Shown here one piece after another: positions 1,956 to 41,533 of a DNA stretch of 64,000 nucleotides. Position 1 is the stretch's first letter; each line of letters begins with the position of its first letter. Source of the stretch: a phage; NCBI GenBank assembly GCA_033286805.1, contig GCA_033286805.1_4727.1; one strand, given 5' to 3'. Under the pieces are notes generated by a model, which worked only from the letters and a program-made list of their open reading frames with translations, was not told the origin of the DNA and did no database searches. The translations under genes and the position numbers were made by a program.

Positions 1956-1987
1956 CCCTCTCCCAACCCAGCAGGGAAGGGAGAGGG
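1956..1987. terminator. GC-rich nested stem-loop between convergent genes
   Basis: CCCTCTCCC / GGGAGAGGG arms around loop AACCCAGCAGGGAA; lies between plus gene end 1939 and minus gene end 2005; TTATG follows on minus strand. Confidence 0.45.
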
Positions 1988-2004
1988 CTTATGCTGTTAT
2001 GCTA

Positions 2005-2379
2005 TTAATGTTCGTTCCAGATGGCATCTTCCGGTGGAACAATAGGATCTTTCTTCGGCATTGATGGCACTTCATGACGATGTTTACGGAACTGCCTATC
2101 AATAACCTCACGAAGCCGGTACGCGTCAACCCATGTTGATTTATTGAACAGCTCCAATGTCACAGTTAATCGTGTTCTTGACATTGAATAGCTTTTCTTT
2201 GCAATCAAATTGGGATAATTCAGTTGAGCGAACCACGCACGTATTTGTGCTTCGGTAAAAGCGATGCTGTAATAACTAAGTTTACCGTCATTAAAATCGT
2301 GCGCGTGGGTGTAGCGTCCAGCGTAACGCCAGACAAGATGCACATTCAGATCGATCCATGGTGGGGTGGTATCAGCCAT
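2005..2379 (-). CDS. hypothetical protein
   Basis: 124-aa ORF, first gene of the long minus-strand run. Confidence 0.45.
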   Translation of the reverse strand: MADTTPPWIDLNVHLVWRYAGRYTHAHDFNDGKLSYYSIAFTEAQIRAWFAQLNYPNLIAKKSYSMSRTRLTVTLELFNKSTWVDAYRLREVIDRQFRKHRHEVPSMPKKDPIVPPEDAIWNEH

Positions 2380-2388
2380 GTGTTACCC

Positions 2389-2958
2389 TCAACGATTCTT
2401 CATCACTTTACCCAGGCTTTCGATATTATCCCAAAAGCGATTTTTACTTGGCGCATCGCCAACGATAACCGACATCAAATCGCGACGTTCGCGACTGATG
2501 ATGCCCTGTGATTTCCAGATCACCATCGTCCAGCAAGCTGCCAGAACGAACAGATGGTTAATGCTCGGTTTGGTTTGCGCGATGAACGCAAGCCATGCCC
2601 AGATACCGGTGTATACTATCGTCACTAAAAAGAGCGAGATTGTTGCAACGACAACAACGAAGTTTTGGACAGCGGGTTGATTAGCGTTATCATGAATAGC
2701 GGTAAGATCAGGAAGGTTACCTTCAACTGAACTCGTTTCATCGATTTCCAATTCTTCGATTTCTTTTCGTGTGTCGGGAGCTAATCCGGCATCATCAAGA
2801 TGCTTTTTTAACCGCTGTATACTTAATCGTTGACCGACAGGAATGTTGATGTTGTCGTAACTATTAAGCGCATCAACCAGGGAGCGTCCATCAACGAGAA
2901 CCAAGCTCGCGGTACCCATCGTTTGCGGTTTTATTTTGTAAAGGTCTTTTACTTTCAT
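2389..2958 (-). CDS. hypothetical membrane protein
   Basis: 189-aa ORF with hydrophobic C-terminal segments (VVVVATISLFLVTIVYTGIWAWLAFIA, LFVLAACWTMVIW). Confidence 0.45.
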   Translation of the reverse strand: MKVKDLYKIKPQTMGTASLVLVDGRSLVDALNSYDNINIPVGQRLSIQRLKKHLDDAGLAPDTRKEIEELEIDETSSVEGNLPDLTAIHDNANQPAVQNFVVVVATISLFLVTIVYTGIWAWLAFIAQTKPSINHLFVLAACWTMVIWKSQGIISRERRDLMSVIVGDAPSKNRFWDNIESLGKVMKNR

Positions 2959-2979
2959 GTAGACACCACCTCCAACGTG

Positions 2980-5592
2980 TTAAGCGTCCGGCGTAAAATC
3001 AAAAGGAATGTCCGTACGAATGATATCGTAACGTTTTCCTAGGAAATAAAACTCTTCGGGAACCTGACCAGGAATAATGCTATCGCCGATGAACTGCGGA
3101 TACGCCCAGATGTACTGAGTGAGTCCTTCGAACATATCCAGGTTATTTGCATGGTTACCCATGATACGTTTCCAGAGTTCGCGTTTATACGGTGTTTTAA
3201 CATCGAATCCATAAAGCGGTGCAAGATCTTCACCAGGAACAAATCCCAGGTAATAATGGATCTGACTAACCGGGAAACCAAGCGTATCTCGCGGAATGGT
3301 GATCGCTTGCTCTGCCTTGGTGACATGCGTCTCAATAATCCAGTCGTAGCACTCCGAATAGAACCGGTCGAATTTCTCTGGGTTATACCACGCTTTGGGA
3401 AGATTGAGTTTCTCCGTGAACGCGTTCGACATGATCGTCGGCAAGAACGGAAGAACACCGGTTTTGATCTGCGTGTATTTCGATTTTACCCGATTAACCA
3501 AATTCCAGCAACTGTATCCTAACTGTTCGTTACAAAACTCAACGTAGAGATCGTAGTCACCACCGGATAATGGGTTGTTAATATCACCGATGTCTGCGGC
3601 ATATTTGTTGGGATATCGGTTATTGAAAGCCAGTTTGGTTTGGTAATCGTAGATACACGGTTTGTTGTTCGCTGTATTGATCCACCACCAGGGTTCACCT
3701 ACTTGCACACAAATGTCCTGGACATGGGGGTAGATGATATCAGCAAACGCGGTTAACACATCCCCTAACCACGCCATCGCCTGTTGGTTACATGGAGACA
3801 GCAACCAGGACGGTGGTGTGTATCCGGTTGCTGCGATGTTTCCTTCCCAATCCTGCTGCGCCCACTCGAACGGGCAGGCTGTACTCATCAATTCGTAACT
3901 TAAACTGATGGTGACAGAGAAATGGTGTTTTGCGGCGTATGCAGCGAAAGCTTCATGCCATGCGATACAGGGTGGATTTAATACATCCGTGGTGTTCACC
4001 AGTAACTTACCTGCACTTGGCGTCCAGACAGTATCGTAGAAATGCGACATTCCAACATAGTGCACTAATTCATCCTGATATCCAGCATAAACCAGGTTTT
4101 CAAATACACGCTCTGGCGTGATGTTGTAATGGTCATCATAAGCGGTTATCGCACGAAGTTCGTGTGGCGTACAATGATGGCGATTAACCGTCATTTCCTG
4201 ATACACCCCATCGATAGGAAGAATCTCGAGGGTTAAACCAAGATCGATCGGTGTTTCCAGATAGGTCGTTTCTGTAGCACCTTCTTTATAATGTCGAGAA
4301 CTCATGCTGAACATCAACGACGTTACCGATTCGAGTTCGATAGGCTCGTCAGCATAGAACCCCGCCATTGCGTCATTGAAATCGATCGTTACGATTGCGC
4401 TTCTACCGTCTTCAGAGACATCGGTGGCGTATCGGGTTAATGAGATATACTGACGGCTATCGTCTTTGTGTACGACGGTTAAAACCGGCGGGTTTTCGGT
4501 ATCTGCAAAGTTACGCTGATCGCCAGTAAACGTGATCTTCGCTTTAAAGATCAAACCGAATAACGACGTCATGGGATCATACGCAATACAACCGTGATCC
4601 AGCGTATCCGTTGTCCGCCATTCTATCCCGACCAACCCGTTAGCGGTATGGCATCGCATATACGCATTAAGGACCATGTCTTCACTGACAACCGCGAAGT
4701 TCTCTGTTGACTGACCGTTGATAATCCAATACATCGGTTGCCAGAGGTTACGCGTACCTTTTGCGTAGCGGTAGGTTGGCGCGCCTTTAGGGTTGCCGTT
4801 ATTAAGATGGAATACAGCAGTACCTTGATAATGGTCGTTCGTATTAATCGGAACACTGTAAGCATCACCGAGATCCGTACGTTCCACCTTCTTGACTGTT
4901 GCGTTTTCAAATAACCCACGCAGCGCGGGTAAACCGATATCATCAGGCGCGTTTTCTCGACGAATCGCATCCGCGATGCGGTGGGCTAGGGCGGGGTAAA
5001 TGGTCTCACCCTGTTGTAGGTTTGCAAGACCTACAAAGCGATCGGGAGCGATGCCAGCAATCAATAACTCAACATCACCCTTCGTTCTATCGTCATTAAG
5101 ATATTTCAGTCCGGTAAGGTCAAGATGCTGAATAAGCGACAACAGGTTGTATTTACGGTTTTCAACAGTTAGTACAAGATCGCCTGCCCAAACCAAACTT
5201 CCCTCATCCGCTGTTACTTTAACGGATTGTCGGCCTGTGGTAGACGTTGTTGTCGTTTTATTTAATTGTCCTTGTAGGAAGTCGGTTGCGAGGTCAAAGG
5301 CAATACCGTAACGGTCAGCGACCGCTTGCATGATTTCACGTAACTGGGTATCTTCTTCAATGATAATCTTGACAGGTATTCCCAAGAACGCTTTAGCGAG
5401 GTCTCGTTTAACCAACGAGACGAATACGGATTTGTAGTATCGGCTTCCATCTTTCCCTTTAAAAAGAATGGAGGTTGTTTCGGGTGCCGATAGAACACGT
5501 GCAAATACAACATCGTCGGAAGTAAGAGAAAGTCCGTTTTTCTCGTTGACCAATCTTAGTATTTCATTTTGCGCGGTTTCATGTAACTTCAT
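2980..5592 (-). CDS. putative tail fiber/tailspike-like protein (shared N-terminal module, paralog A)
   Basis: 870 aa; N-terminal ~150 aa (KRDLAKAFLGIPVKI ... ADRYGIAFD) shared with ORFs at 11326, 15669 and 52039; large divergent C-terminus; sits beside the tail fiber genes. Confidence 0.55.
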   Translation of the reverse strand: MKLHETAQNEILRLVNEKNGLSLTSDDVVFARVLSAPETTSILFKGKDGSRYYKSVFVSLVKRDLAKAFLGIPVKIIIEEDTQLREIMQAVADRYGIAFDLATDFLQGQLNKTTTTSTTGRQSVKVTADEGSLVWAGDLVLTVENRKYNLLSLIQHLDLTGLKYLNDDRTKGDVELLIAGIAPDRFVGLANLQQGETIYPALAHRIADAIRRENAPDDIGLPALRGLFENATVKKVERTDLGDAYSVPINTNDHYQGTAVFHLNNGNPKGAPTYRYAKGTRNLWQPMYWIINGQSTENFAVVSEDMVLNAYMRCHTANGLVGIEWRTTDTLDHGCIAYDPMTSLFGLIFKAKITFTGDQRNFADTENPPVLTVVHKDDSRQYISLTRYATDVSEDGRSAIVTIDFNDAMAGFYADEPIELESVTSLMFSMSSRHYKEGATETTYLETPIDLGLTLEILPIDGVYQEMTVNRHHCTPHELRAITAYDDHYNITPERVFENLVYAGYQDELVHYVGMSHFYDTVWTPSAGKLLVNTTDVLNPPCIAWHEAFAAYAAKHHFSVTISLSYELMSTACPFEWAQQDWEGNIAATGYTPPSWLLSPCNQQAMAWLGDVLTAFADIIYPHVQDICVQVGEPWWWINTANNKPCIYDYQTKLAFNNRYPNKYAADIGDINNPLSGGDYDLYVEFCNEQLGYSCWNLVNRVKSKYTQIKTGVLPFLPTIMSNAFTEKLNLPKAWYNPEKFDRFYSECYDWIIETHVTKAEQAITIPRDTLGFPVSQIHYYLGFVPGEDLAPLYGFDVKTPYKRELWKRIMGNHANNLDMFEGLTQYIWAYPQFIGDSIIPGQVPEEFYFLGKRYDIIRTDIPFDFTPDA

Positions 5593-5614
5593 TAAAAACC
5601 TCAGCCCTTTAGAA

Positions 5615-6256
5615 TTAAATGTACTGCTTACCGCCCACGAAGGAAGTTAACCAGTTCCCGCTGACGAGTTGTGATACCCAGCCTGGAACGGCTCTACCAT
5701 TCTGGCTCATGATGTTACCACACCAACCAGGGAATCCGGGACGGATGTAATAGAAAGTTAAATTGTAGAGATGGCAATTCCATACCGCAACGTTATGTTT
5801 ACCAGAAACCGCTTTAAAGACAAACGCGACAGGTAACGGAGACGATAACAATTCGGTCACAGGGACGGCTGACCAGTTCGCATTCGCGTTCCATGGCTGC
5901 CAGGTATGGCTACGCGAGTCACCGTTAACGTTACCGTTGCTACCGCGTCCGCCCGCGTTCCACCATAGCGACGGACTCATGTTCTTAAGTGAGGTAAATT
6001 GCTGTGGTGGAATATTCGGAATGATAACAGGGTTGGTACCTTGTCCGTGTTTCTTTTCTTTTGCGTTCACATACCCGCTTATCGATTCCAGGTATTTGGT
6101 ACCAGGATAATTGTTCTGGACTTGTGTCGCAATATCACGAACGTCGAACGTCCAGCAGATCATGGTGTTGTAGTAAGCGTCGGTGTTATCGTGCCATGAG
6201 TTACCATCTTGTAAACGTGCGCCGCTATTCGGTGTTTTATCTGTGCTTATAGCCAT
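5615..6256 (-). CDS. hypothetical protein
   Basis: 213-aa ORF, Trp/Asn/Gly-rich; no motif recognised. Confidence 0.5.
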   Translation of the reverse strand: MAISTDKTPNSGARLQDGNSWHDNTDAYYNTMICWTFDVRDIATQVQNNYPGTKYLESISGYVNAKEKKHGQGTNPVIIPNIPPQQFTSLKNMSPSLWWNAGGRGSNGNVNGDSRSHTWQPWNANANWSAVPVTELLSSPLPVAFVFKAVSGKHNVAVWNCHLYNLTFYYIRPGFPGWCGNIMSQNGRAVPGWVSQLVSGNWLTSFVGGKQYI

Positions 6257-6438
6257 GGTGTTGTCCTATACGTTGGTGGTTGAGGTGGCGGATATCGGAT
6301 GCGTGTTGTCGTCAGGTAATACATACAGAAACGCCCACTGATAAAACAGTAGCTTCTTTTAAATGGAATTTAGATATCGCGTATTTCTACCTCGTTTCTA
6401 TTCTCAAAAAGGAAATTTCATACGATGACGCCATAGCA

Positions 6439-6468
6439 GCTCCTCCTTCCCTGACGGGTTGGAGGAGC
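6439..6468. terminator. GC-rich stem-loop
   Basis: GCTCCTCC / GGAGGAGC arms; loop TTCCCTGACGGGTT is the reverse complement of the loop of the hairpin at 41502; immediately after the stop of gene 6477..6983. Confidence 0.35.
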
Positions 6469-6476
6469 ATACTTAA

Positions 6477-6983
6477 TTACTTACTGATAACCTCAACGGA
6501 GTTGGGATCAGCGATCAATGCACGGTCGGTAGAACAATTGAAGAAGACCGTACCAACACCATCACCGTTCGAGTTCAGGGTTGAACTTGCGTAAGACAGG
6601 GTTGGTTTATTCATGCGGTAGAAGCGTTCGCTGGTTGCGGTATTGAACCCCAGGTCAACGTAGTCTTTCACCGTGGTATACAACTGGGTGGACTCGAAAA
6701 CGGTTACCGGAGAGTCGACGGTAAATTGACTGCCTTCGTCCACAACCAGAACTTTATCGTTCCAGATTTCAGTGGTTGAGAACTTCGGTTTCCAATGTTC
6801 GAATTCCTGGGTTGCACCCCAGCAAGAATACACAGCGAGATTGCTGTTCTTCTCGACAGGTTTCAACCCCACCAGTTGTGTCAGGTCTTTATCCAGGTTC
6901 GGTAAACCTTCCAGCGTAGCACACCCACCCAGAGAAAGCACCATTAGCATACCAAGAACGATCGCGCAAAGTTTCTTTGTCAT
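6477..6983 (-). CDS. putative lipoprotein
   Basis: N-terminus MTKKLCAIVLGMLMVLSLGGC has a signal peptide and lipobox-like LGGC; 168 aa. Confidence 0.5.
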   Translation of the reverse strand: MTKKLCAIVLGMLMVLSLGGCATLEGLPNLDKDLTQLVGLKPVEKNSNLAVYSCWGATQEFEHWKPKFSTTEIWNDKVLVVDEGSQFTVDSPVTVFESTQLYTTVKDYVDLGFNTATSERFYRMNKPTLSYASSTLNSNGDGVGTVFFNCSTDRALIADPNSVEVISK

Positions 6984-7024
6984 CGGATTTCCTCATGTGT
7001 TAACGGGAGTGATTTCCATAGTAA

Positions 7025-7441
7025 TTACACAGTTGTAGGAAATTCCGGCCAATCGATATTTGGTGCAGCATCGGTATCGACAGCAGTCACCGCATCAGTG
7101 TAATCCAAAACAGCATTAAGTCGGGTCGTTTCTTCCTGAGTCAGTTTTCGCCCAGCCCGTAATTTTAACTGAATAAGATCGATGGAAGCCAGCGCAGAAT
7201 CAATCAAAGATTGTTTTATCTGTTCTGCCTCGGCGACGAGATCTTCGTGTTGCCGCTCGGGTTCCGGAGGTGCGGTAAACTCACCATTTGAGTATGACCA
7301 ACCTATTCCAGGTGACACAGCCTCCTTATCGTCGATATGAACCAACTGCTGATTGTCGAATATATCGAGCTCTGCTTCACCGTCGTAAACAATCGTGTTT
7401 ACTACCACCCCATTTTCAATAACAGCGTATGATGTACTCAT
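7025..7441 (-). CDS. tail fiber assembly chaperone (Tfa-like)
   Basis: Start taken at internal MSTSYAVIENG (ATG ~7441), abutting the fiber gene stop. C-terminal region (LIQLKLRAGRKLTQEETTRLNAVLDYTDAVTAVD ... IDWPEFP) resembles lambda/P2-type Tfa proteins. Confidence 0.6.
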   Translation of the reverse strand: MSTSYAVIENGVVVNTIVYDGEAELDIFDNQQLVHIDDKEAVSPGIGWSYSNGEFTAPPEPERQHEDLVAEAEQIKQSLIDSALASIDLIQLKLRAGRKLTQEETTRLNAVLDYTDAVTAVDTDAAPNIDWPEFPTTV

Positions 7442-10400
7442 TACATAAACTCCTCGATGATGCAAATCCCATTAGCACCACGCCCACCAGGCTTAGCGGT
7501 TCCTGAGTAAGAGTTATCGTAAGCACCGCCACCACCCGAACCAGGCGCGAGGCCGTTATGGGCGGTGCCAACACCAGCGCGACCGCCACCGCCCCAATAT
7601 GACGCACCCCCACATCCACCGACGGCAAGAGTACCGGCTTGTCCATCGTTACCGTCTCCGCCCGGAATGCGTATATCCCCGGTAGTAGGTACGCCCCCAT
7701 AGCCACCGCCAGTGTTTGTGACAGTTGTTTTTCCTGCGCCTTGCCCGCCGGGAGCAGTTAGCAGGGATGCAAATTTACTATCCCCACCCCCGTTCCCAGA
7801 CGTCGCCCCAGAGCCACCGGAACCACCAGAACCAATTACAACAGAATAACTAGCAGCTGTTACCGTTATAACCGAAATTACTGTTCCGCCAGCGCCTCCC
7901 CCAGCGCCAAAAAACGTTTCGCTGTTGGAATAAGCCTGACAGCCACCGCCGCCACCGCCGCCACCGGTTATTGTTACTCTAATCCGTTTTGTTCCTTGTG
8001 TTGGGGTGTACGTCCCTGACGATGTGAAAACACGCATGTTCAGTAAACGTCCGACATATCCGCTAGAATCGGCTAAACCAAGATCTTTAGCTGCTAACGT
8101 GATATTAGCTGTACCGTCAAACGGTTTACCGTTAATCGTGCGCGCGGTCTGCAACTTCGTCGCCGTTGCTGCGTTTCCTGATGTGTTCTGGTTCCCCGCA
8201 GCGTTAACACCCGGCAGATTGATGTTCGCACTACCGTCGAAAGATACCCCACCAATGGTGCGGGCTGTTTTCAGTTTTGTCGCCGTGGCAGCATTACCGG
8301 TTGTGTCTTGGTTACCGGTGGTGTTTACCCCAGGCAGGTTGATATTTGCCGTTCCGTTAAATGAAACACCGCCAATCGTCCTTGCTGTTTGAAGCCTCGT
8401 CGCGGTAGCGGCGTTACCCGTCGTGTTCTGGTTTCCGGTTGTGTTCACACCAGGGATACTATCTTTCGAGGTGTAGATCTGTGCCCATTCTGACCAGTTC
8501 GAATCGGCCGCATCACGACGTGAACGTAGGTAAGCTGGAGCGTATGCACCTGAGGTACCTGACCACCCAATGAGGATTTCACCTTCACCGACCGATGAAG
8601 CCCCTTTAAGATGAATGACGTTACCATAAGCGGTGGGATACCCGTTATTGTACGCTTCATACATCTGGATGCCCGCATTGCTGCCCTGAGCCGTGTTAGC
8701 TAATGCCGTAACACGACCTTTGGAGGCGAGAGCGGTAATACTGAAGCTAATATCCTTAGTACCGTCAAAGGCGACCCCATTAATCTTCCGTGCTGTTTGG
8801 AGTTTCGTGGCGGTAGCCGCATTACCAGAGGTACTCTGATTACCTGCTTTGTTCACGCCAGGCAAATCAATGTTGGCTGTTCCATCAAAGGACACGCCCC
8901 CTATGGTTCTCGCTGTCTGGAGTTTTGTTGCTGAGCCAGCGTTTCCGGAAGTGCTTTGATTACCTGCCGCGTTGACACCTGGTAGGTTAATGCTAGCAGA
9001 GCCATCAAAAGAAACTCCACCGATCGTGATTGGTGTTTTCAATTTCGTGGCTGTCGCAGCATTACCCGTCGTATTCTGATTGCCAGCCGCATTAACGCCT
9101 GGTAATGCGATATCGGTCGTACCATCGAACGCGACACCACCGATTTTACGGGCAGTCTGTAGCTTGGTCGCTGTAGCCGCGTTGCCGCTGGTATTTTGCG
9201 TGCCCGCTTTATTTACGCCTGGTAAATCAATGTTCGCAGTACCATCAAAAGAAACACCCCCGATGGTTCTCGCGGTCTCAAGTTTGGTTGCGCTTCCTGC
9301 GTTTCCGCTGGTGTCTTGGTTTCCCGCTGCATCAACACCCGGTAGACTGATGCTGGCCGAACCATCGAAACTCACACCACCGATCGTAACAGCGGTTTTC
9401 AATTTCGTAGCGGTTGCAGCGTTCCCCGTGGTATTTTGGTTACCTGTCGCATTCACACCCGGTAATGCAATATCCGCTGTTCCGTCAAAGGCAACGCCAC
9501 CGATTCTACGTGCAGTTTGTAGCTTGGTTGCACTAGCAGCGTTACCGCTGGTATTCTGGGTGCCAGCTTTGTTAACACCAGGGAGATCGATGTTAGCAGA
9601 ACCATCGAAGCTAACGCCACCTATCGTTCTTGCAGTAGCAAGTTTAGCTGCTGTAGCAGCGGCGTTACCGACTTTTAACCATTCGCCCCATGGACCATCC
9701 TGGCCGTTCCATGATGCCGTTAAACTACGTACGTAAATATTGCCGGTACATACAGTGTAACGTTGCGTTCCACCGAATTGCCCGGTTGGGAGCACTTCAA
9801 TGTAACCTGCGGCATTTGCTTCAGGGAAATTGTGGGCGACGTCCGCGTTCGTTGATACTGGTTTAGACCAAATACCCACAGACGCTTCAACCGGACCGTA
9901 CGTATTCAGATTTGCGTCGGTGGGAAGTTGTCCTCGAAAACGCTGGAATTGTGTTGCCGATAACCCCAACGTTGTTTGCATGCTTTCAATGCTGGATTGC
10001 TGAAGTAACGTCCGTGCTGTCGACGTAATCACGGTAAGCGCAACTTTATTAACACCGGTGAAATACGGGAGTTTGTCTGCTGATGTCGCTAAACCTGAAA
10101 AGGCGGTCAGTAATGCGTTAAGGGGCTGCTTCCCAGCTAACGCATTTGTTACCGTCGTTGCGAAATTAGGATCACTTCCTATAGCTCGAGCCAGCTTATT
10201 AAGCGTATTTAGCGTCGCTGGTGACGAGTCGATCAGCGCCGTGATCGCACGCATCACAAATTCCGTGTTGGCTATCTGTCGACTGCTATTGTTAACTGCT
10301 GCGGTGGGCGCTGCTGGCGTACCAGTGAATACAGGGCTATTAAGATCCGCCTTGAGGGCGATGAGACGTTTAAGCGCTTCAACATCAACTTTCAGGTTTT

Positions 10401-11319
10401 CCCATCCGATGAGAGAACCACCACTGTTGGTATGATAACGGTTGTACCAGAAGTCACCGTTAACGCCAAAAAAGAATATACATTTCTCTTCGTTTTGTGG
10501 ACCGGAACTATTTCGTGATGAGTCGATATATTTGATTTCAATAAGACCGCTAAACACCACTCCTGGGATTATATTGTTGTCTCCAGCTGATTGTGATACT
10601 TGGTACATCCCCGGGGTTGCAGCTTTAACCCACGTTAAGAATTCTGTTACTCCAGCGTTACCGCTGAAACGCTTAACGTCGGTAAGTATCGCCCCATAAC
10701 CGAACATACCGGGTAAAGCAACTCGCCCATCGGTACGGTCACGAATATCTGTTGCAACAACAGGCAATTGTTTACGAACGGCATTAACCGCTTTAGGCGT
10801 GGCCGATTTTGTCTCGTCGTCGCTATCGGTTTCATTACTTAGAATAGTTAAACCGCGTGTAGTAGTAGTTGCATCAGGAAGAAATGCGTTATCCAACACC
10901 TTAAGCTGTACTGCACTCGTATTACTAACAACGACATGCACTTGACAGTTAAGAACGCTGGTTGCGCCTTCGGCAGGCGTAGGCTTATATCTTTCTGGTG
11001 CACTGCAGACGGCAATCAGAACACCTTGGTCGTCATACAGACCGATCTCACGTACCCAGAACCCACCTTGACCAGCAGGAATAATACCCTCAACGATAAT
11101 CCTAGTTGTGCTATCACCATCCGCATGGATATTAGAAACTTCCCCACGATAAACTTCGTGAACAAGCGCTGTTTGGCTGGCGGTAGGGGTTGGGATCGAG
11201 CCGTTACCATCACCAACGGCAAAGTGTGTGATTTTTAGTTTCTCACCGTCGGGAAGTAACGCAGCGGTGATACGTTCTGCTCCTTTATCGGTAACTACCG
11301 TTATATATGCTGTACTCAT
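7441..11319 (-). CDS. long tail fiber protein
   Basis: 1292 aa. N-terminal tail-fiber/collar-like domain (PTPTASQTALVHEVYRGE); eleven 39-aa tandem repeats; C-terminal polyglycine-rich region (GGGGGGGG ... GGGAGG). Confidence 0.75.
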   Translation of the reverse strand: MSTAYITVVTDKGAERITAALLPDGEKLKITHFAVGDGNGSIPTPTASQTALVHEVYRGEVSNIHADGDSTTRIIVEGIIPAGQGGFWVREIGLYDDQGVLIAVCSAPERYKPTPAEGATSVLNCQVHVVVSNTSAVQLKVLDNAFLPDATTTTRGLTILSNETDSDDETKSATPKAVNAVRKQLPVVATDIRDRTDGRVALPGMFGYGAILTDVKRFSGNAGVTEFLTWVKAATPGMYQVSQSAGDNNIIPGVVFSGLIEIKYIDSSRNSSGPQNEEKCIFFFGVNGDFWYNRYHTNSGGSLIGWENLKVDVEALKRLIALKADLNSPVFTGTPAAPTAAVNNSSRQIANTEFVMRAITALIDSSPATLNTLNKLARAIGSDPNFATTVTNALAGKQPLNALLTAFSGLATSADKLPYFTGVNKVALTVITSTARTLLQQSSIESMQTTLGLSATQFQRFRGQLPTDANLNTYGPVEASVGIWSKPVSTNADVAHNFPEANAAGYIEVLPTGQFGGTQRYTVCTGNIYVRSLTASWNGQDGPWGEWLKVGNAAATAAKLATARTIGGVSFDGSANIDLPGVNKAGTQNTSGNAASATKLQTARRIGGVAFDGTADIALPGVNATGNQNTTGNAATATKLKTAVTIGGVSFDGSASISLPGVDAAGNQDTSGNAGSATKLETARTIGGVSFDGTANIDLPGVNKAGTQNTSGNAATATKLQTARKIGGVAFDGTTDIALPGVNAAGNQNTTGNAATATKLKTPITIGGVSFDGSASINLPGVNAAGNQSTSGNAGSATKLQTARTIGGVSFDGTANIDLPGVNKAGNQSTSGNAATATKLQTARKINGVAFDGTKDISFSITALASKGRVTALANTAQGSNAGIQMYEAYNNGYPTAYGNVIHLKGASSVGEGEILIGWSGTSGAYAPAYLRSRRDAADSNWSEWAQIYTSKDSIPGVNTTGNQNTTGNAATATRLQTARTIGGVSFNGTANINLPGVNTTGNQDTTGNAATATKLKTARTIGGVSFDGSANINLPGVNAAGNQNTSGNAATATKLQTARTINGKPFDGTANITLAAKDLGLADSSGYVGRLLNMRVFTSSGTYTPTQGTKRIRVTITGGGGGGGGCQAYSNSETFFGAGGGAGGTVISVITVTAASYSVVIGSGGSGGSGATSGNGGGDSKFASLLTAPGGQGAGKTTVTNTGGGYGGVPTTGDIRIPGGDGNDGQAGTLAVGGCGGASYWGGGGRAGVGTAHNGLAPGSGGGGAYDNSYSGTAKPGGRGANGICIIEEFM
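8095..8454 (-). repeat. second block of the same 117-bp coding repeat, ~3 copies
   Basis: Fiber residues ~956-1075 repeat the same 39-aa unit after an intervening non-repeat domain. Confidence 0.6.
8740..9663 (-). repeat. in-frame tandem coding repeats, ~8 x 117 bp, inside the tail fiber gene
   Basis: Repeated unit encodes IGGVSFDGSANIDLPGVNKAGTQNTSGNAATATKLQTAR. The same periodicity produces spurious antisense ORFs at 9080..9736. Confidence 0.7.
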
Positions 11320-11325
11320 GGTGTT

Positions 11326-11853
11326 TTATCCTGGATAAATAGTGATGATATCACCAATGACGGTTGTGGCACCGGCGTAAAGATGAGCCGGAGATACATC
11401 ATGTTGGTTTGTCACAGTAAGATCCAATCGACCACGCCAAACCATGGAGGTATTCGCGATGGGGATAGAAATCTTTTTGGATATATCGTCACGAAAATCA
11501 ATAACAGTGGCAAGGGTAACCGCATCAAAATCAACATCGGGATCAAAGACGAACCCGTATTGATCTGAAATCGCCCGAATAATGGCATGTATAGTTGTTG
11601 TCTCAACAGACTCTAAAACGATTTTTACCGGTATTCCTAAAAATGCCTTCGCGATATCGCGTCGGGCGTAAACGATAAAGCATTCACCGCACCACTTTGT
11701 TCCTTCATTTGCTGTGACGATCACTTTTGCCCTGTTAGCACCAGAACTCCCATCCAAGGTTAATGTAAGATCGGAGTTGCTGAACACGCTACCGTTACGT
11801 TGGTTTATCAACGTAATCAGTTCGTCTTTCCATGGTGGGTAAAGTGAACGCAT
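11326..11853 (-). CDS. short paralog carrying only the shared N-terminal fiber/spike module (paralog B)
   Basis: Start set at MRSLYPPWKDEL (ATG verified at 11851-11853) by alignment with the other three paralogs; contains ARRDIAKAFLGIPVKI ... SDQYGFVFD. Confidence 0.5.
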   Translation of the reverse strand: MRSLYPPWKDELITLINQRNGSVFSNSDLTLTLDGSSGANRAKVIVTANEGTKWCGECFIVYARRDIAKAFLGIPVKIVLESVETTTIHAIIRAISDQYGFVFDPDVDFDAVTLATVIDFRDDISKKISIPIANTSMVWRGRLDLTVTNQHDVSPAHLYAGATTVIGDIITIYPG

Positions 11854-11966
11854 AAGCGCACCCTCCTCCAACAATCAAATTAAGATATATAACTCCTCGA
11901 AACCAAAGTGCGATTCGAGGTAAGCGTAAACAGTCCAGACGACCGCATAAAATTCCGCGCATATTA

Positions 11967-11998
11967 CCCCTCTACCCCGACAAAGCGAGATAGAGGGG
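11967..11998. terminator. GC-rich stem-loop
   Basis: CCCCTCTA / TAGAGGGG inverted repeat in the intergenic region downstream of gene 12059..15655. Confidence 0.4.
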
Positions 11999-12036
11999 AG
12001 GTTAATACGATTATGCTATTGCACTCCAAAGTTCAT

Positions 12037-12053
12037 GGGGCGGTAACCGCCCC
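12037..12053. terminator. short perfect palindrome hairpin
   Basis: GGGGCGG-TAA-CCGCCCC immediately after the stop of gene 12059..15655. Confidence 0.45.
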
Positions 12054-12058
12054 ATCGG

Positions 12059-15000
12059 TTAAATTGTCGGTTTTACATCACGTAATAAGGCAATATAATA
12101 GCCTAATCCTCGGAGGATCTCCCCACTCCAGAAACCAAAATACATTCCGTCTCTGCCGAGATTAGCGCTATCTGGTGCGGGACTCCACCCACCGTTCATT
12201 ACGTCATCAACGGTGTAGCGGTTGATGTAGTTCTCAACGATTTCGTTATACGCATTAACAGCAACAGAATAGCCTTTATCGTTGGGATGTCCGTACAACA
12301 TTGCTAACGACGCACCAGCCAACCATAATCCTGCCATGTGACCAGTAAAGTCATTAGGGATAAAAGCAGGGGGTTTATCCATCGGAAAATCCGTAGGAGA
12401 TTGATAGGCGTTTTCCTGTTGATACGTAAACAAGAAATCAATCCAATGACTGATGTAAGTGGTTAATTTCTCAGGGACGGCTAAACCACGATCAAGCAGT
12501 CCAGCATAAAGCCGCACCGCTGAAAAGAAAGCCCTCGGCTGATAACCAGACCATGCTGTCTGATCGCCGAAATGGTACATCGTAAAATCATTAACTTTTG
12601 ATCCGCTTGGCGCATCCCAACGATCCCACACGTACGCACTTGCCCCTGGCCCTAAAACCCCGAATTTCTGATAATACCACTGCTGCGAGTCATACCAGAA
12701 ATTCACAACATTCTGAATCATGAGGTCACGTCGTTCAGCCGATACGTCCATATCCAGGAAGACCCATGGATGTTGGTAGCCGGGATAAGGCTGACCACGC
12801 CAACTGTCGAACGTCGGTGCGTTAGGGATATAGTTGTTAGAGAACGGAATAATACCCGGAGTATAAGGCAATGGATCCAGACGTTGGTTGACAATCGTAC
12901 AATCGCCAACACGTAATGTTCCCTCCGCCTCAAAGGTTGCTTTTAACGTAAACAGCATGGTATATCCGTCATCCGTGGTGTAAGTTGACGGTGGATTGTT
13001 GATAGCGTAAAGCTTAAATACCCCTTCAGCGATATCGCTGTCATCAGGCAAGAACAGAATTTCAGTTGAGCCATCACCCCACACAGGTGCAGAAGGTTTA
13101 GGGTCAGTGTCAACATGGTTCGGTTGATACCCTGAGAGCGTCCACCCATTCGCCGAAAGCGTCAATGTATTTCTTGCTGTGGTGGCCGGTAGCATATACC
13201 ACCATCGCCAACCATTTGCATCTTCTACACGAACGTTGTAGTCAATCGACGCGAAATAACTGACCTGCCTTACGATCTGTTTTGCGGTTGGATTGAATTC
13301 AAATTGCCCGCCTGCCGCAGTAAGCTGCGCTTTTAGGAACAACCCATCCCAGGAATCTTCCACCGCTTCGCTGAATTCTGTTGTAATTGCGACATCGTCT
13401 TTCCAGCCGACTTTATCAGCCGATATCAACACAGAACCTGTAACAGCATCGCCGGTTGGCGTTGAAGCTTCATCAACCGCATCAGCAGGAATCAACGAGC
13501 CTATTTTGAAATCCCATTCTTTCGGCTCAGCACTGGAAGGTAATACCAGCTTGTATGTTTTGGCTTTCGCTTCGGTTTTGTCCAAAGAAAGCGATAATGA
13601 GATCTCAACCGGAATTGCAATACCTGCCGTATCCTTACCTCCGCAGGTTACACGAAGAATTGAATTACGATTGACACGGAACGGAATGGCCTGCTGTTCA
13701 AGATAAATTTGTGCTGAAGATGCTTGAATCACGATCCAGCCATCGGTATCACGTGTGATTGTGAACGGTGCTTTCGATGGGTACGTATACGTGTAAGCGA
13801 TACCGTCGGTGTCGTAACGATCGGTTCCTTTTACTTGACGGAAGAACTTATCGTTGGCGTCAATACGGGTATATTCTTCAATCGTAAACAAAGATGCCTT
13901 GTACGCTTTCTGATAACGCTCCTGCTGCGTTAAACGATATAAGGTGTAGGCTGCTTCACAAAACCATTGTTCGGCGTCTGACGCGTTTCCCATGTAGTCT
14001 CTGGTGACCGGCACCTGGATCGGTCGGTTATGCTGACACTCGTTCGTTTTGATGAGGTATCCGCCATATTCAACAGGAACACGCGGTGCCCATGCAACCA
14101 AGTAAGAACCGCTGACGGATTTATCTTTGAGTACGATGGTACCTACCTCATCGTCAGTACACGCTTCAAGATCGTCTCCGTCAGCACTTACGTAACGTTT
14201 TGTGCGTAACGCAACTTTCTCGATAGGGAACACCGTACCCTTTGTATCCCAGTCAATCGTCCCATCATCATTGGTTTTGAACACATCGGCGTTCAAATTC
14301 TGCCAGCCGAGTTTACCCTCATAGACCTGAACAACAAGATCCATGTATTCCCCGAACGTTGGTGCCCCATGTGTTATTTTTCCAATACCGTTGGTGAATG
14401 TAACCGCTGTGTCATGGAAACCGCCATGTGTTGGGTAATCGTCTTTTGCAAGAGGATAATGGGCCAACACAGGTTGTTTACCATTAACAATCCAGTTAGC
14501 GATCCAGCGTGTCGGTGTATCCGGTGGTTCAAGGCCTGCATAGAACGCTTTTATATACGCATCGAACGATGTCTCTGCTAATGTGAGATAATGCGCTTTA
14601 AGCTTGGTGTCATCCGTTGTATGACTGAATATACCCGCACCCAGAATTAACAACGACTGTCCTTCTGTTGTTGCGTCACCATCCGGTTGTGCTTCTTGTC
14701 GTGTTGCTGCAATGAAATGACGGTTGTTTACCATGACCCCGCTTTCATTTAACACGTAATGATCGGTTTCTGGGTCGGTAAACGTTCCTGTGTTTCGGGT
14801 TAAGAATCTTGCATGGCCATAACCAACGAAATTAACCGGCGACGCTGTAATCACCCATTTACCGATAAGTTGAGCAACATCATTATAACGCTCGGATGCG
14901 GTGATTTGTTTCACGTACCAGTCTTTATGGTTAAATGTCCAAAGCAGGAAGTAATAAGTTGTATCGATTTCCATCACTGGGAACGTCGGCGTTAACGGCT

Positions 15001-15655: not shown

Positions 15656-15668
15656 TATTTACTCCACC

Positions 15669-16499
15669 TTAATCGTAACTAAAATAAAGTTTGCTGCTGA
15701 CGCCGCTATCGGAATGAGGTTTTAATACCAGAACAGAGCTTCCGAACGACGGAAGTATTGGAACATCTAAATCGTTCGCATCGGCAACTTTTCCATTATA
15801 AACGACATTGGCTGTTGTGATGAGTTCCCAAGCTAAGGTATAACTCATTGAAATCAGCGACGAGGCTAAACGGAATGCGTTGTATCCTTCTGGAGTATCT
15901 CCAACCGACATCGAACGTATCGCATCTTGCGGTGGTAAATTTAGCTTGATGCCGTAGGTGCTGAATGTGTGGAAATCCCCTTGTTTACTATCTTCTGGAT
16001 AATACGAGGTTAGCGGTTCTCGCACCGTAATCAGTTCGCTAATATCGGTACTTACATCTTTTCGTGCGAGGAATTGAAACGTACCGTGCCATGATGCCGA
16101 TGCGTCAGAACGAACGGGAACAGATATGGTTTTCTCGCCGCTTTCAAATTTAACCTGTGATGCTAACGCTGAAGAATCAAAGATCGTTAAATCGATCTTC
16201 AACCCATATTTCTTAAACAGCTGCGTTAAGCAGTCTGCTATCGTCGTCTTATCAGCAACGACAATAAAAGGTTGGTGTTTGATAAAGAGCTTATTAATGT
16301 CTCGACGTTGAAGATAAACCTGTACGGGGTCTTCGACGTAGTAAACCGATTGTGGTGCGGGGGCTATAGAAAGGCGTAACCGACCCGATGCACCATACCA
16401 GGCTGGCGTTAACGTAACGTCTGACAGGGACAACGGATGCTGGAGATAGGCGTTTATTTTAGATAACACTTCCTCCTGCCATGATGCTTCAGGATACAT
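15669..16499 (-). CDS. paralog with shared N-terminal fiber/spike module (paralog D)
   Basis: 276 aa; LQRRDINKLF ... FKKYGLKIDLTIFD ... ISVPVRSDASASWHG aligns with the module in 2980, 11326 and 52039. Confidence 0.5.
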   Translation of the reverse strand: MYPEASWQEEVLSKINAYLQHPLSLSDVTLTPAWYGASGRLRLSIAPAPQSVYYVEDPVQVYLQRRDINKLFIKHQPFIVVADKTTIADCLTQLFKKYGLKIDLTIFDSSALASQVKFESGEKTISVPVRSDASASWHGTFQFLARKDVSTDISELITVREPLTSYYPEDSKQGDFHTFSTYGIKLNLPPQDAIRSMSVGDTPEGYNAFRLASSLISMSYTLAWELITTANVVYNGKVADANDLDVPILPSFGSSVLVLKPHSDSGVSSKLYFSYD

Positions 16500-16556
16500 G
16501 CTGACCTCATAGATGATCGTTGATAGGAAAGAGACCTAATTCATACCATGGGAACC

Positions 16557-16614
16557 TCAAAAAAAAAAACGAAAAATAGGGAAACGGTGTTCATCCTTTT
16601 TAGGGATGAACACC
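16557..16614 (-). terminator. rho-independent terminator
   Basis: 12-bp stem CGGTGTTCATCC / GGATGAACACCG, followed on the minus strand by a long U tract (complement of the A run at 16557-16569); just downstream of gene 16636..17211. Confidence 0.7.
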
Positions 16615-16635
16615 GCGTACCGTTATATCGAACGA

Positions 16636-17948: not shown

Positions 17949-18122
17949 TTCTATTCCTCAAATAAAGATTGTCTTTTAACGCGACATGATTACAAGTACA
18001 CAGGTTACTGGATTTCTGTAAAAGTTAATTTTCGTAAACTAAAAGAAAATGTATCCGTGTTTCTTGGTTCTTCCCCTCCACAGCCTCAGGAAGAGAAGAA
18101 CCGTTTGCTAAGTTGTTATGTA

Positions 18123-18434: not shown

Positions 18435-18459
18435 CCCTTCCCGCCTTACGCAGGAAGGG
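18435..18459 (-). terminator. stem-loop terminator
   Basis: CCCTTCC / GGAAGGG stem followed on the minus strand by UUUAUGCUGUU; downstream of gene 18474..18971. Confidence 0.5.
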
Positions 18460-18473
18460 CATACGGATTTGTT

Positions 18474-25298: not shown

Positions 25299-25319
25299 GC
25301 CCTCCCATGTCGGGAGGGT
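25299..25319 (-). terminator. stem-loop
   Basis: GCCCTCCC / GGGAGGGT stem with TTATGCC following on the minus strand; between genes 25324..25752 and 24625..25275. Confidence 0.45.
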
Positions 25320-39903: not shown

Positions 39904-39924
39904 AGCCTCCCATTACGGGAGGCT
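39904..39924 (-). terminator. stem-loop terminator
   Basis: 8-bp stem AGCCTCCC / GGGAGGCT, loop ATTAC, followed on the minus strand by UUUAUGCCGUCUUACCC. Confidence 0.5.
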
Positions 39925-40561: not shown

Positions 40562-40571
40562 GCAGGGATTA

Positions 40572-41105
40572 CTACTTAACGATCGCGATGATTTTACCGC
40601 CCGCACCGGCGTAATATGCCGTTAAATTACCAGTAAACAACTCTTGTAAAAGACGATTTACGTGACTAACAAAGTTAGGATTGTCTGATTTTACAAACTC
40701 GATGTGACGCGTTTGTTTTATATCACGATCGATTAAGCGTATTTCCAACAACGCACGAATGAGGTTATCGTCAAGTTTACCACTTGCATCCAGCACTTCC
40801 CCATACGTCGTAGCACGGACGTCTGCATACATACGGTCAACATCATCCTTCCCAAAACCACAGGAATAGGCATACGTTGCGATGGTATTACCATTATCCA
40901 TCACGTAAACGTTACCGCCTGGGTAATCGATAAATCGTTGATCCTTATCACCATGAGCGACGAACTCCAGTGTCGGTCTACCTAGTGAATCACGATTGAA
41001 TTCGATAGTTGTCAAACGGTCAGGCACCACATGTAACGTAAACGGTTTTGCATTGTTACGATCGCTAGTATCGCAGTTGCCCATTACTTTTACGATAACA
41101 CTCAT
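40572..41105 (-). CDS. hypothetical protein, tandem paralog
   Basis: 177 aa; paralog of 39937..40485. Confidence 0.5.
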   Translation of the reverse strand: MSVIVKVMGNCDTSDRNNAKPFTLHVVPDRLTTIEFNRDSLGRPTLEFVAHGDKDQRFIDYPGGNVYVMDNGNTIATYAYSCGFGKDDVDRMYADVRATTYGEVLDASGKLDDNLIRALLEIRLIDRDIKQTRHIEFVKSDNPNFVSHVNRLLQELFTGNLTAYYAGAGGKIIAIVK

Positions 41106-41179
41106 GTTTTATTCCTTAGTAGTCCTAGTAGTAGTATTGAGGAATTTCACCTCATTAGATAGTCTATTTTGGTAATGTT

Positions 41180-41479
41180 TTACTGAAACAAGACATTAAA
41201 TTCGACGAGATACCCATCGGATCTATCACCACGATATCTGTTGCAGAAAACACCGAATTTCATCAAAAACACACATAACTCTTCGGCTTTGTATAGCGGA
41301 ATACGATTTTCGTCGAGCAGGGGGCACTTATGGCTAACCCGCTCCGACGAATCAACACAACACAAATAAAGAAGGAACCGAACGATGGCTCGGTTCTTAG
41401 TGAAGCTCTCGAATTCACCTGCGGTTCTGAACTCATCGAGGAGCTTTGTCGTTTTCTTCAATCGTTCACGATCAAGCAT
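41180..41479 (-). CDS. hypothetical protein
   Basis: Track start is a TTG inside the hairpin; ATG at 41477-41479 (MLDRERLKK) preceded by GAGG. Confidence 0.45.
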   Translation of the reverse strand: MLDRERLKKTTKLLDEFRTAGEFESFTKNRAIVRFLLYLCCVDSSERVSHKCPLLDENRIPLYKAEELCVFLMKFGVFCNRYRGDRSDGYLVEFNVLFQ

Positions 41480-41501
41480 GTTAACCTCAATACGAACATA
41501 A

Positions 41502-41533
41502 CCCTCCTCCAACCCGTCAGGGAAGGAGGAGGG
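41502..41533. terminator. GC-rich nested stem-loop
   Basis: CCCTCCTCC / GGAGGAGGG 9-bp stem around loop AACCCGTCAGGGAA; near-copy of the element at 1956..1987; TTATGTT follows on the minus strand. Confidence 0.45.

Follow-up and report, generated by a model that had tools for sequence, protein, structure and literature searches.

The window analysed here, a 64 kb stretch of phage DNA, is approximately 97% (96.9%) identical to Escherichia phage Goslar, a nucleus-forming jumbo phage of E. coli and a member of the Chimalliviridae. A preliminary description of the window had reported three nested hairpins with a common loop, and all three are present with the coordinates and sequences it gave. 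Their cores read CCCTCTCCC-AACCCAGCAGGGAA-GGGAGAGGG (E1, 1956-1987), GCTCCTCC-TTCCCTGACGGGTT-GGAGGAGC (E2, 6439-6468, the minus strand reading AACCCGTCAGGGAA) and CCCTCCTCC-AACCCGTCAGGGAA-GGAGGAGGG (E3, 41502-41533). That description had overlooked a fourth, variant copy at 53514-53546, the genome-wide family to which these copies belong, and the conservation of their flanks (CATAA upstream, TATGYYGT downstream). The nested copies in the window are as follows.

1951..1999, no strand assigned: E1, predicted nested terminator hairpin, with flanks CATAA (1951-1955) and CTTATGCTGTTA (1988-1999)
6431..6468, minus strand: E2, predicted nested terminator hairpin, 8 nt 3' of the stop codon of the minus-strand gene 6477..6983
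41497..41545, no strand assigned: E3, predicted nested terminator hairpin, with flanks CATAA and GATATGCCGTTA
53514..53546, no strand assigned: variant nested copy, CTTCCTCCC-TA-CCC-ATAAC-GGG-CG-GGGAGGAAG (covariance model score 23.9 bits)

E1 lies between the convergent genes 1361..1939 (+) and 2005..2379 (-), at a position orthologous to Goslar 93445-93476, which carries the GenBank annotation "putative transcriptional terminator". E2, followed on the minus strand by TGCTATGG, is the sole copy in the window with the AA form on the coding (minus) strand, and its orientation is unchanged in Goslar and in two related IMG/VR metagenomic contigs (B and C), which together with the window make up the four genomes compared here. 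E3 is located 9 nt past the stop codon of the minus-strand gene 41543..41857 and 22 nt ahead of the ATG (41479) of the minus-strand gene 41180..41479; the minus-strand ORF at this site is backed by the codon-position pattern of substitutions (1:3:10), and the plus-strand Goslar_145 was ruled out by that pattern as a real gene spanning E3. The variant copy occupies a convergent junction orthologous to Goslar 146607; past its stem, the plus strand continues with GTTTATG and the minus strand with ATATG. Covariance model scores are 64.9 bits for E1, 57.6 bits for E2 (minus strand) and 73.4 bits for E3.

Allowing one mismatch, the pattern AACCCNNCAGGGAA has exactly three matches in the 64 kb, namely E1-E3, where 0.12 are expected from shuffled sequence (0/100 shuffles reach three), and all three fall outside genes and carry arms. 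On both strands the elements fold into the nested hairpin, in which a tetraloop closes a 3-bp CCC/GGG stem that is separated from the outer stem by a 2x2 internal loop. Free energies range from -24 to -33 kcal/mol (E1, -28.3 on the plus and -33.1 on the minus strand), with z-scores of -4.6 to -6.5.

These hairpins belong to a family with the consensus ACATAA-CCCTCCTCC-AA-CCC-RNNA-GGG-AA-GGAGGAGGG-(A/T)TATGYYGTTA, represented by 15 core copies plus variants in Goslar and by 15 and 14 copies in the two related contigs; 13 of the 15 Goslar copies are retained at the orthologous site in B and also in C or the window. Genome-wide in Goslar, AACCC-N4-GGGAA has 17 occurrences where 0.3 would be expected, with arms of at least 8 bp in 14 cases, one case cut by the start of the record and two armless cases inside genes (2/17); the loop is hence not equally frequent in coding regions lacking inverted repeats, the outcome that the preliminary description had named as telling against it. 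A mobile palindromic repeat of the REP/MITE type was rejected as an explanation for the family, since orthologs are mostly kept, all copies sit at gene 3' ends and no target duplications were seen.

Within the family, the parts of the element evolve very differently. AA-CCC...GGG-AA is without any variation in 45 copies from the four genomes, the outer arms covary among the same copies, and the tetraloop is hypervariable, diverging by 23% between orthologs compared with 6.6% for the flanks, which makes it the fastest-evolving part of the element. It follows that, contrary to the earlier claim, conservation does not concern the 14-nt loop sequence as such: its central 4 nt are hypervariable, and the whole element flips between orthologs (see below). 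Among the aligned copies 99.4% of stem cells are paired, and 5/9 outer pairs have changed on both sides (57 cells), a level reached by no shuffle. None of 468 stem cells holds a G-U pair; together with the frequent flips, this could also reflect maintenance at the DNA level instead of RNA function. The strict invariance of AA-CCC/GGG-AA exceeds what a terminator stem needs.

Arm-specific patterns retrieved no further related phage from IMG/VR, their only other matches being three contigs with a different arm. The three contigs with GGCCTCC arms were rejected as relatives, one of them (L132) resembling Geobacillus/Brevibacillus phages, and the broad IMG/VR pattern CCAACCCN4GGGAAGG was dropped as a source of relatives because its matches are mostly unrelated. 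Pattern searching of IMG/VR also found many marine viral contigs with CCCCCC-AACCC-GAAA-GGGAA-GGGGGG and A/T-rich flanks, and for one marine contig with a nested look-alike (L025) no match was found. The marine and GGCCTCC-arm look-alikes mean that a similar nested design arises elsewhere, and nothing more.

The genomic position of the copies is strongly constrained. All lie 4-31 nt past stop codons; convergent junctions account for 11 of the 17 Goslar copies, and each of the remaining six comes after a minus-strand gene. TATG is found within 5 nt of the stem on 25/28 sides that receive an incoming gene vs 2/6 sides that do not (background 1.7%). A TTAT(K)YYGT tail follows the stem within about 2 nt (E1(+), CTTATGCTGT; E1(-), TTATGTTAC; E3(-), TTATGTTCG; E3(+), GATATGCCGT), the E2(-) tail TGCTATGGCGT being a weaker match. 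Because TTATG follows the stem on both strands, E1 is probably bidirectional.

In RNA these tails read UUAUG, AAUAUG or UGCUAUG and fall short of the U-run of a canonical E. coli terminator (at least 5 U in 8 nt). A consensus scan of positions 1-20000 for sigma-70 promoters and U-run terminators showed no enrichment of either and listed neither E1 nor E2, and Rfam 15 covariance models gave no gathering-score match in the whole window and none at E<=1 around E1 and E3. Host RNA polymerase would probably stop inefficiently at these elements, as the tail is UUAU/AUAU with no U-run. In bacterial intrinsic terminators that act in both directions, the hairpin is flanked by an A-run and a U-run. The Goslar elements resemble them in that one palindromic GC-rich hairpin serves both strands between convergent genes, but are flanked by CATAA and TTATG with a conserved G-YY-GT in place of the A- and U-runs, which points to a signal specific to a phage polymerase.

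A conserved terminator motif has been described in related phages. The phiKZ motif BCCYCCCCHWWDGGGRRGGBYTTATKYYGT takes in 61 terminators mapped by ONT-cappable-seq (Putzeys et al. 2024, PMC10914365), and it recurs in 201phi2-1 as motif A, with 15 bidirectional termination sites and 8 terminators validated in vivo (Poppeliers et al. 2024, PMC11512511). The arms of all three elements are of the CCYCC type on the 5' side and the GGRGG type on the 3' side (E1, CCCTCTCCC/GGGAGAGGG; E2, GCTCCTCC/GGAGGAGC; E3, CCCTCCTCC/GGAGGAGGG). The arms and tail of E1 are nearly identical to the phiKZ terminator GCCCTCTCC-ttat-GGAGAGGGC-ttatgatgt, and the arms of the phiKZ hairpin at 27659 equal those of E1. A covariance model built from nested Goslar-family copies only (R1) recovers about 17 phiKZ gene-end hairpins in 82 kb, with matches spanning the full model and E-values of 9e-7 to 1e-2 that are rough owing to a shortened calibration. 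The flanks ACATAA and TTATGCTGTTA are the same in the phiKZ hairpins and the Goslar-family copies.

Beyond this pyrimidine 5' arm, purine 3' arm, TTATG-YY-GT tail and ACATAA upstream flank, the two groups share sites right after genes, palindromic two-way copies at convergent junctions and multisubunit RNA polymerases of their own. They differ in that the loop in phiKZ and 201phi2-1 is 4-5 nt, whereas the Goslar lineage has a 14-nt second tier (AA-CCC-RNNA-GGG-AA); the outer stem is 7-8 bp there and 8-9 bp here, the host is Pseudomonas there and E. coli here, and 3' ends have been mapped there but are predicted here. Since the short loop of the motif (about 4 nt, HWWD) is replaced in E1-E3 by an interior of 14 nt that is itself folded, we file them as a variant of the phiKZ-type terminator and not as typical members. 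The combined motif A/B terminators of 201phi2-1, whose hairpins are described as elongated by an additional conserved motif, form a comparable subclass of chimallivirus terminators (PMC11512511).

The window also contains sibling hairpins closer to the phiKZ form. All seven listed here rest on a scan for hairpins with TATG and, except 11967..11998, also on a covariance or phiKZ-consensus search.

11967..11998, minus strand: sibling hairpin, CCCCTCTA-N16-TAGAGGGG-TAATATG
18435..18459, minus strand: sibling terminator, CCCTTCC-tgcgtaaggcg-GGAAGGG-TTTATGCTGTTA
25300..25318, minus strand: simple sibling terminator, CCCTCCC-GACAT-GGGAGGG-CTTATGCCG
39904..39924, minus strand: simple sibling terminator, AGCCTCCC-GTAAT-GGGAGGCT-TTTATGCCGT, annotated as a terminator in Goslar (132985-133005)
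47875..47894, minus strand: simple sibling terminator, ACCCTCCC-TTCG-GGGAGGGT-TTATGCCGC
60240..60269, minus strand: sibling terminator with a long interior, CCCTCCC-tctcccatgtggaggt-GGGAGGG-AATTATG
61104..61132, no strand assigned: sibling hairpin, CCTCCTCC-caccacatgggta-GGAGGAGG, with TATG 5 nt off the stem on both strands

The siblings at 39904, 47875 and 25300 have the short loop (about 4 nt) of the phiKZ motif, and the first of them (window hairpin 39894(-)) has 2 mismatches to the phiKZ consensus vs 3-5 for phiKZ's own sites in its first 50 kb. A generic scan for pyrimidine-arm hairpins followed by TATG finds 15 in the window vs at most one in shuffles, and also recovers the phiKZ gene-end hairpins.

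Taken with these parallels, E1-E3 are likely to be intrinsic, often bidirectional terminators for the phage's own phiKZ-type multisubunit RNA polymerases, RNA 3' ends forming at them as they do, by analogy, in phiKZ and 201phi2-1; the nested class is the commonest terminator subclass in Goslar-like phages. The Goslar annotation includes several RNA polymerase beta/beta'-like genes, as expected of phiKZ-type virion and non-virion multisubunit enzymes, and Goslar_39 is the homolog of the phiKZ non-virion polymerase subunit GP123 (tblastn E=4e-53). The design shared with phiKZ and 201phi2-1 comprises a GC-rich stem with a CCYCC 5' arm and a GGRGG 3' arm and, immediately after it, a (T/A)TATG-YY-GT(TA) tail. 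As arms and flanks are palindromic in DNA (ACATAA...TTATGYYGT), one element can stop transcription from both directions, and this two-way action explains why the majority of copies lie between convergent genes. The Goslar lineage has swapped the usual 4-5 nt loop for 14 nt that fold into a second tier, in which an R-N-N-A tetraloop tops three C-G pairs above a 2x2 A.A internal loop (U.U on the other strand). The identity of the halted polymerase is inferred, as is the contribution of the invariant inner tier, which may be hairpin stability or a contact for the polymerase or a factor.

A more specific version of this mechanism, doubtful although conceivable, is that the phage polymerase reads the chimallivirus terminator as a sequence-specific signal and not simply as a stable hairpin. 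The beta-lobe pocket that in phiKZ GP123 reads TATG at late promoters would capture the conserved non-template TATG(YYGT) 3' of the stem; this capture would pause the elongating enzyme, and the hairpin would then release it. The Goslar second tier (2x2 A.A/U.U plus CCC/GGG) would be an extra contact for the polymerase or a 3'-end factor, and of two converging genes, flips would change which one meets the stronger (UU) form and which the weaker (AA) form. Pairwise alignment (24% identity) gives 8/16 identical residues for the TATG pocket in Goslar, which is no more than suggestive of a conserved pocket.

TATG is also the phiKZ late-promoter consensus, its G being the transcription start site (PMC4666361), and the elements might accordingly be imagined as stop-and-restart modules, in which the hairpin terminates and the adjoining TATG serves as a late promoter for the next gene, or in which a GGAGG arm and ATG form a masked ribosome-binding site. 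At E3 the ATG of the next gene follows 18 nt downstream of the TATG, with GAGG in between, and at Goslar 49776 Goslar_47 is annotated as starting at the ATG of TTATG. At the 11 convergent junctions, however, an outward promoter would yield antisense RNA only, no hairpin precedes the model late promoter p119L, and the ATG at E1 and E3 opens ORFs of just 5-13 codons, so that we consider this account highly improbable. Hairpin plus TATG as the standard late promoter was likewise discarded, p119L being hairpin-less and convergent copies having no downstream gene to serve.

The inverted state of one of the three elements, remarked on at the outset, proves to be an instance of something general to the family: 7/26 ortholog pairs and 6/14 orthologous sites are flipped. 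The E3 ortholog in contig B is one example, in which the alignment places the inversion in just the 14 interior bases; this is the signature of a hairpin-associated small inversion, the interior being reverse-complemented between orthologs while arms and flanks are the same. Equivalent transcripts therefore carry AACCC..GGGAA in one phage but UUCCC..GGGUU in a close relative, which is evidence against recognition of the loop RNA by its strand-specific sequence.

This observation bears directly on the original proposal that the conserved loop marks a specific recognition site rather than a generic terminator. In its fullest form the elements would bind a phage RNA-binding protein (e.g. one that protects or processes mRNA 3' ends or helps mRNA out of the phage nucleus), the conserved interior being what is recognised and termination being secondary or absent. 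The interior is indeed constrained beyond pairing, AA-CCC/GGG-AA staying fixed in 45 copies whose arms covary and whose tetraloops drift, and in chimalliviruses mRNA has to leave the phage nucleus and RNA-binding proteins, ChmC among them, are encoded (PMC11077065). The proposal also stands in that these are not generic E. coli-type terminators, having no U-run and escaping a simple terminator scan. It fails in setting the elements apart from terminators, as their arms, tail and position are those of the phiKZ motif and E1 is annotated as a terminator. With 7/26 ortholog pairs presenting either form on the same transcript, a central tetraloop that evolves fastest, sibling terminators at equivalent positions without the interior, and ChmC eCLIP data that contain no motif and peak near start codons (PMC11077065), a dedicated protein-binding site appears unlikely.

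Flips probably arise through recombination or template switching between the 9-bp arms, and through gene conversion in which a paralogous copy pairs with the element either way round. At the E1 site the whole hairpin allele has been replaced, with CCCTCTCCC/AGCA in Goslar and the window and CCCTCCTCC/GTAA in B and C. Comparable hairpin-associated small inversions ("flip-flop" loops, mentioned in PMC2939885) are familiar from chloroplast intergenic regions, where the interior of an inverted repeat likewise occurs recurrently in either orientation among close relatives and at terminator-like hairpins; the present case differs in involving a phage genome, arms of just 8-9 bp and exchange among about 15 paralogous copies.

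Flips and allele replacement could also indicate an element that acts purely as DNA, a cruciform palindrome serving as a recombination hotspot, gene-cassette boundary or protein-binding site and playing no part at the RNA level. The arms form perfect palindromes in the DNA, zero G-U pairs being present, gene content beside the element differs between genomes at one locus (Goslar 86.7 kb), and the Goslar annotation includes RuvC-like and SbcC-like proteins. Such a reading is nevertheless improbable: copies lie strictly a few nt past stop codons, the TATG tail tracks the direction of incoming transcription, the conserved AA/AA mismatch lacks the palindromic symmetry that a dimeric DNA-binding site would have, and in phiKZ RNA 3' ends have been mapped to elements of this design (PMC10914365). 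Recombination at the repeats is better seen as a by-product of a multi-copy palindrome.

Returning to termination by the phage's own polymerases, the phiKZ-type terminator signal was already known; what is new is its conserved mini-hairpin top, with orientation flipping between close relatives. For annotation, the family supplies about 30 predicted terminators in Goslar-like genomes and corrects at least one gene call, and for engineering it offers compact two-way insulators. The frequent flips and allele swaps mark multi-copy terminator palindromes as recombination-active spots in jumbo-phage genomes. That the flanks ACATAA/TTATGCTGTTA are nearly the same in a Pseudomonas phage and an E. coli phage, despite GP123-type subunits that are only about 24% identical between phiKZ and Goslar, points to a conserved polymerase-specific stop signal. 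Termination by phiKZ-type non-canonical RNA polymerases is poorly understood, and the family provides a candidate stop signal testable in the tractable E. coli-Goslar system, where its natural variants, in both orientations, with six tetraloops and with siblings that have or lack the second tier, would serve as ready-made "mutants" for termination tests.

Re-reading the window reproduced exactly the positions and sequences that the preliminary description gave for three nested hairpins, each with outer arms around a 14-nt interior (AA-CCC-N4-GGG-AA) that folds as a second tier:

E1, 1956-1987: CCCTCTCCC-AACCCAGCAGGGAA-GGGAGAGGG; convergent ORFs 1361..1939(+) and 2005..2379(-) on its two sides
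E2, 6439-6468: GCTCCTCC-TTCCCTGACGGGTT-GGAGGAGC, interior inverted; 8 nt past the stop of 6477..6983(-)
E3, 41502-41533: CCCTCCTCC-AACCCGTCAGGGAA-GGAGGAGGG; 9 nt past the stop of 41543..41857(-)

With one mismatch allowed, these are the sole matches to the loop pattern in 64 kb (0.12 in shuffles). RNA folding gives the same three-tier shape whichever strand is folded: a weak outer CAUA/UAUG helix lies below an 8-9 bp stem, which leads through a 2x2 internal loop to a CCC/GGG stem capped by a tetraloop (-24 to -33 kcal/mol on either strand; z-scores -4.6 to -6.5). Taking all the evidence together, we consider it likely that the nested hairpins serve the phage's own multisubunit RNA polymerases as intrinsic terminators, many of them two-way.

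Window positions 1000-7500 share 96.9% identity with Escherichia phage vB_EcoM_Goslar (Goslar), a nucleus-forming jumbo phage of the Chimalliviridae (237 kb), whose GenBank record labels the E1 counterpart a "putative transcriptional terminator" and leaves E2 and E3 unannotated. A pattern scan of the complete Goslar record, once assembled, found 17 occurrences of AACCC-N4-GGGAA against 0.3 expected, 14 with arms of at least 8 bp and one truncated by the record start; only 2/17 are armless and intragenic, so the loop is not equally common in genes without inverted repeats, which the preliminary description had named as the outcome that would count against it. Core copies in Goslar number 15, counting one with a 5-nt loop, and variants are extra (variant 146607 is the counterpart of window 53514-53546); the family consensus is ACATAA-CCCTCCTCC-AA-CCC-GTAA-GGG-AA-GGAGGAGGG-AATATGCTGTTA. 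Scanning IMG/VR with arm-specific patterns placed the family in Goslar and two further contigs:

Contig B, IMGVR_UViG_3300011560_000001, 237.5 kb: 15 copies
Contig C, IMGVR_UViG_3300045988_173921, 182.9 kb: 14 copies

The remaining arm-pattern matches lay in three contigs only, all with a different arm (GGCCTCC); as one (L132) matches Geobacillus/Brevibacillus-type phages, these were rejected as relatives. The Goslar record (MK327938) itself starts within a nested terminator copy, beside an A(17) run, and its positions 1-55 recur at the record end (237253-237307); the repeat appears to be an overlap left by assembly, with the cut made at an arbitrary point, rather than a true genome end.

By GenBank annotation the Goslar copies start 4-31 nt past a stop codon in every case, 11/17 between convergent genes and 6/17 behind minus-strand genes. 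E3 is spanned by an annotated plus-strand gene, Goslar_00145 (Goslar_145; 134413..134640; window 41330-41563), that overlaps a minus-strand ORF (41180-41479). Counted by codon position over the window, Goslar and contig B, substitutions number 1:3:10 on minus ORF 41180..41479 and 10:5:6 on the plus ORF; because of these patterns the Goslar_00145 call is probably wrong, and the unannotated 99-aa minus-strand gene at 41180-41479 is probably real. Elsewhere in Goslar, a module (TCACTAAGGTAATGTAGTCGCGAAATAAACTGGAG) common to 49657-49756 and 86683-86721 adjoins two elements; read on the minus strand, the module lies 3' of the hairpin and includes ACATTACC, akin to the phiKZ middle-promoter motif AAanTTACc. 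Possibly a promoter, it also makes the 62-aa ORF Goslar_00047 doubtful.

Long-read primary-transcript mapping in the Pseudomonas jumbo phage phiKZ yielded 61 terminators with a common motif, 5'-BCCYCCCCHWWDGGGRRGGBYTTATKYYGT-3', in which a stem-loop precedes TTAT (PMC10914365). The Pseudomonas jumbo phage 201phi2-1 has the same motif plus elongated A/B hairpins; 15 of its termination sites are bidirectional, and eight terminators were confirmed in vivo (PMC11512511). Arms and tail of the Goslar family agree with this motif, of which the Goslar lineage would carry a nested-loop version; E1(+), for instance, is CCCTCTCC..GGAGAGGG-CTTATGCTGT, and phiKZ 27659 is GCCCTCTCC-ttat-GGAGAGGGC-ttatgatgt. 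One simple hairpin of the window, 39894(-), has 2 mismatches to the published phiKZ consensus, from which phiKZ's own sites in the first 50 kb differ by 3-5. Scanning generically for a pyrimidine-arm hairpin with TATG at most 5 nt away gave 15 strand-instances from 11 hairpins in the window, where shuffles gave one at most; Goslar had 45 and phiKZ 1-50 kb had 11, every one at a gene end and several with TATG on both sides. A covariance model trained on nested copies only retrieved about 17 gene-end hairpins from 82 kb of phiKZ (E 1e-6 to 1e-2), for example AAACATAATGCCCTCCC-gcaat-GGGAGGGCTTATGCTGTTA. The preliminary description had favoured a recognition site over a generic terminator; it was right as to generic U-run terminators, but by arms and tail the elements belong to a terminator family. 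Four other strong perfect hairpins of the window (16585-16615, 46437-46466, 51944-51973 and 12035-12055; stems 9-13 bp; e.g. GAAGCTCTGCCTG-ACAT-CAGGCAGAGCTTC and CGGTGTTCATCC-TTTTTAG-GGATGAACACCG) have neither pyrimidine/purine arms nor a TATG tail.

The TATG in the tail of family hairpins is found on 25/28 gene-receiving sides and 2/6 other sides (background 1.7%), and the tail therefore tracks transcription direction. TATG is also the phiKZ late-promoter consensus (PMC4666361), and the tail might be read as a restart promoter, but this is unlikely, given that the model late promoter p119L has no hairpin and that convergent copies leave such a promoter no gene to serve. A sequence-specific polymerase pause at the terminator TATG is conceivable, because this is the motif that the beta-lobe pocket of GP123, a phiKZ non-virion polymerase subunit, binds on the non-template strand (PMC12809450), and the pocket is partly kept in the Goslar homolog (E=4e-53; 8/16 residues identical, two or three others conservative).

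In an alignment of 39 distinct copies, with pairs counted per cell, 99.4% of cells are paired, G-U pairs number zero, and 5/9 outer pairs have changes on both sides (57 cells), which no shuffle matched. The AA, CCC, GGG and AA of the interior are invariant there; the pattern used to retrieve the B and C loci included these bases and possibly missed a few mutated orthologs, a bias limited by the near-equal copy numbers (15, 15, 14). Over 26 ortholog pairs, divergence is 23% in the tetraloop, 6.6% in flanks and 1.7% in arms, and the tetraloop takes six forms only (GTAA, GTCA, GTGA, ATCA, AACA, AGCA). Conservation of the loop beyond stem complementarity, as originally proposed, thus holds for the AA/CCC/GGG/AA framework but not for the central tetraloop, the most variable part.

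Pairing orthologous elements by flanking sequence revealed that at 6/14 sites the element is reverse-complemented in at least one genome with flanks unchanged. The inversion first noticed in E2 is therefore real but not singular, flips affecting 7/26 ortholog pairs. At E3, base-by-base alignment shows identical arms and flanks around interiors AACCCGTCAGGGAA (window), AACCCGTAAGGGAA (Goslar) and TTCCCTGTTGGGTT (B). With the Goslar plus strand as reference, the two orientations number 13:2 in Goslar, 9:5 in B and 7:6 in C; orientation is accordingly not fixed in evolution, and the flips, as compared here, argue against a strand-specific reading of the loop RNA. The E1 site carries arm/loop allele CCCTCCTCC/GTAA in B and C and CCCTCTCCC/AGCA in Goslar and the window, a difference that indicates gene conversion from a paralogous copy. 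Palindromic arms and flanks would let a donor align either way round, so that gene conversion would also account for the flips, for which template switching inside the palindrome is an alternative. Two phiKZ paralogs (NC_004629 25214-25234 and 34917-34937, L150) have identical arms (GCCCTCCC/GGGAGGGC) and reverse-complement loops (ATTGC/GCAAT), and thus behave likewise. At the Goslar 86.6-86.8 kb site, B (L057) and C (L072:3250-4000) carry a nested element with about 70 nt of flank that is shared with Goslar 49.7 kb; the gene that comes next is absent from Goslar, where the site holds another hairpin, imperfect and CT/GA-rich. Variable gene cassettes seem to be bounded by terminator repeats.

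Other two-tier terminator subclasses (Goslar 84366-84396, 200229-200265, 156156-156184 and 166927-166953; window 18435-18459) combine the same arm type and TATG tail with interiors such as ta-GCC-GTCAA-GGC-cg and tgc(g/a)taaggcg; on these sequences, nested tops appear as a recurring theme of the lineage rather than something invented once. The AA-CCC-N4-GGG-AA interior is also seen in hairpins of unrelated IMG/VR viral contigs (L008, L012, L015, L019, L021, L025, L032, L037 and others; L017, L132, L137). Many marine contigs have CCCCCC-AACCC-GAAA-GGGAA-GGGGGG with A-rich flanks, hence a T-run past the stem on the opposite strand, and L017, L132 and L137, one from a relative of Geobacillus-type phages, have GGCCTCC-AACCC-TTTC-GGGAA-GGAGGCC. 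The nested UU/AA design seems to have arisen repeatedly in phage terminators.

A conserved chimallivirus terminator motif is already published; in the literature searched we found neither such a motif with the same flanks in an E. coli member, nor a nested second tier, nor frequent orientation flips and allele exchange of terminators. Termination at the nested hairpins, the polymerase concerned and the function of the invariant second tier are what we infer, and the family is of use in annotating genomes and as a system in which to test how non-canonical polymerases terminate.
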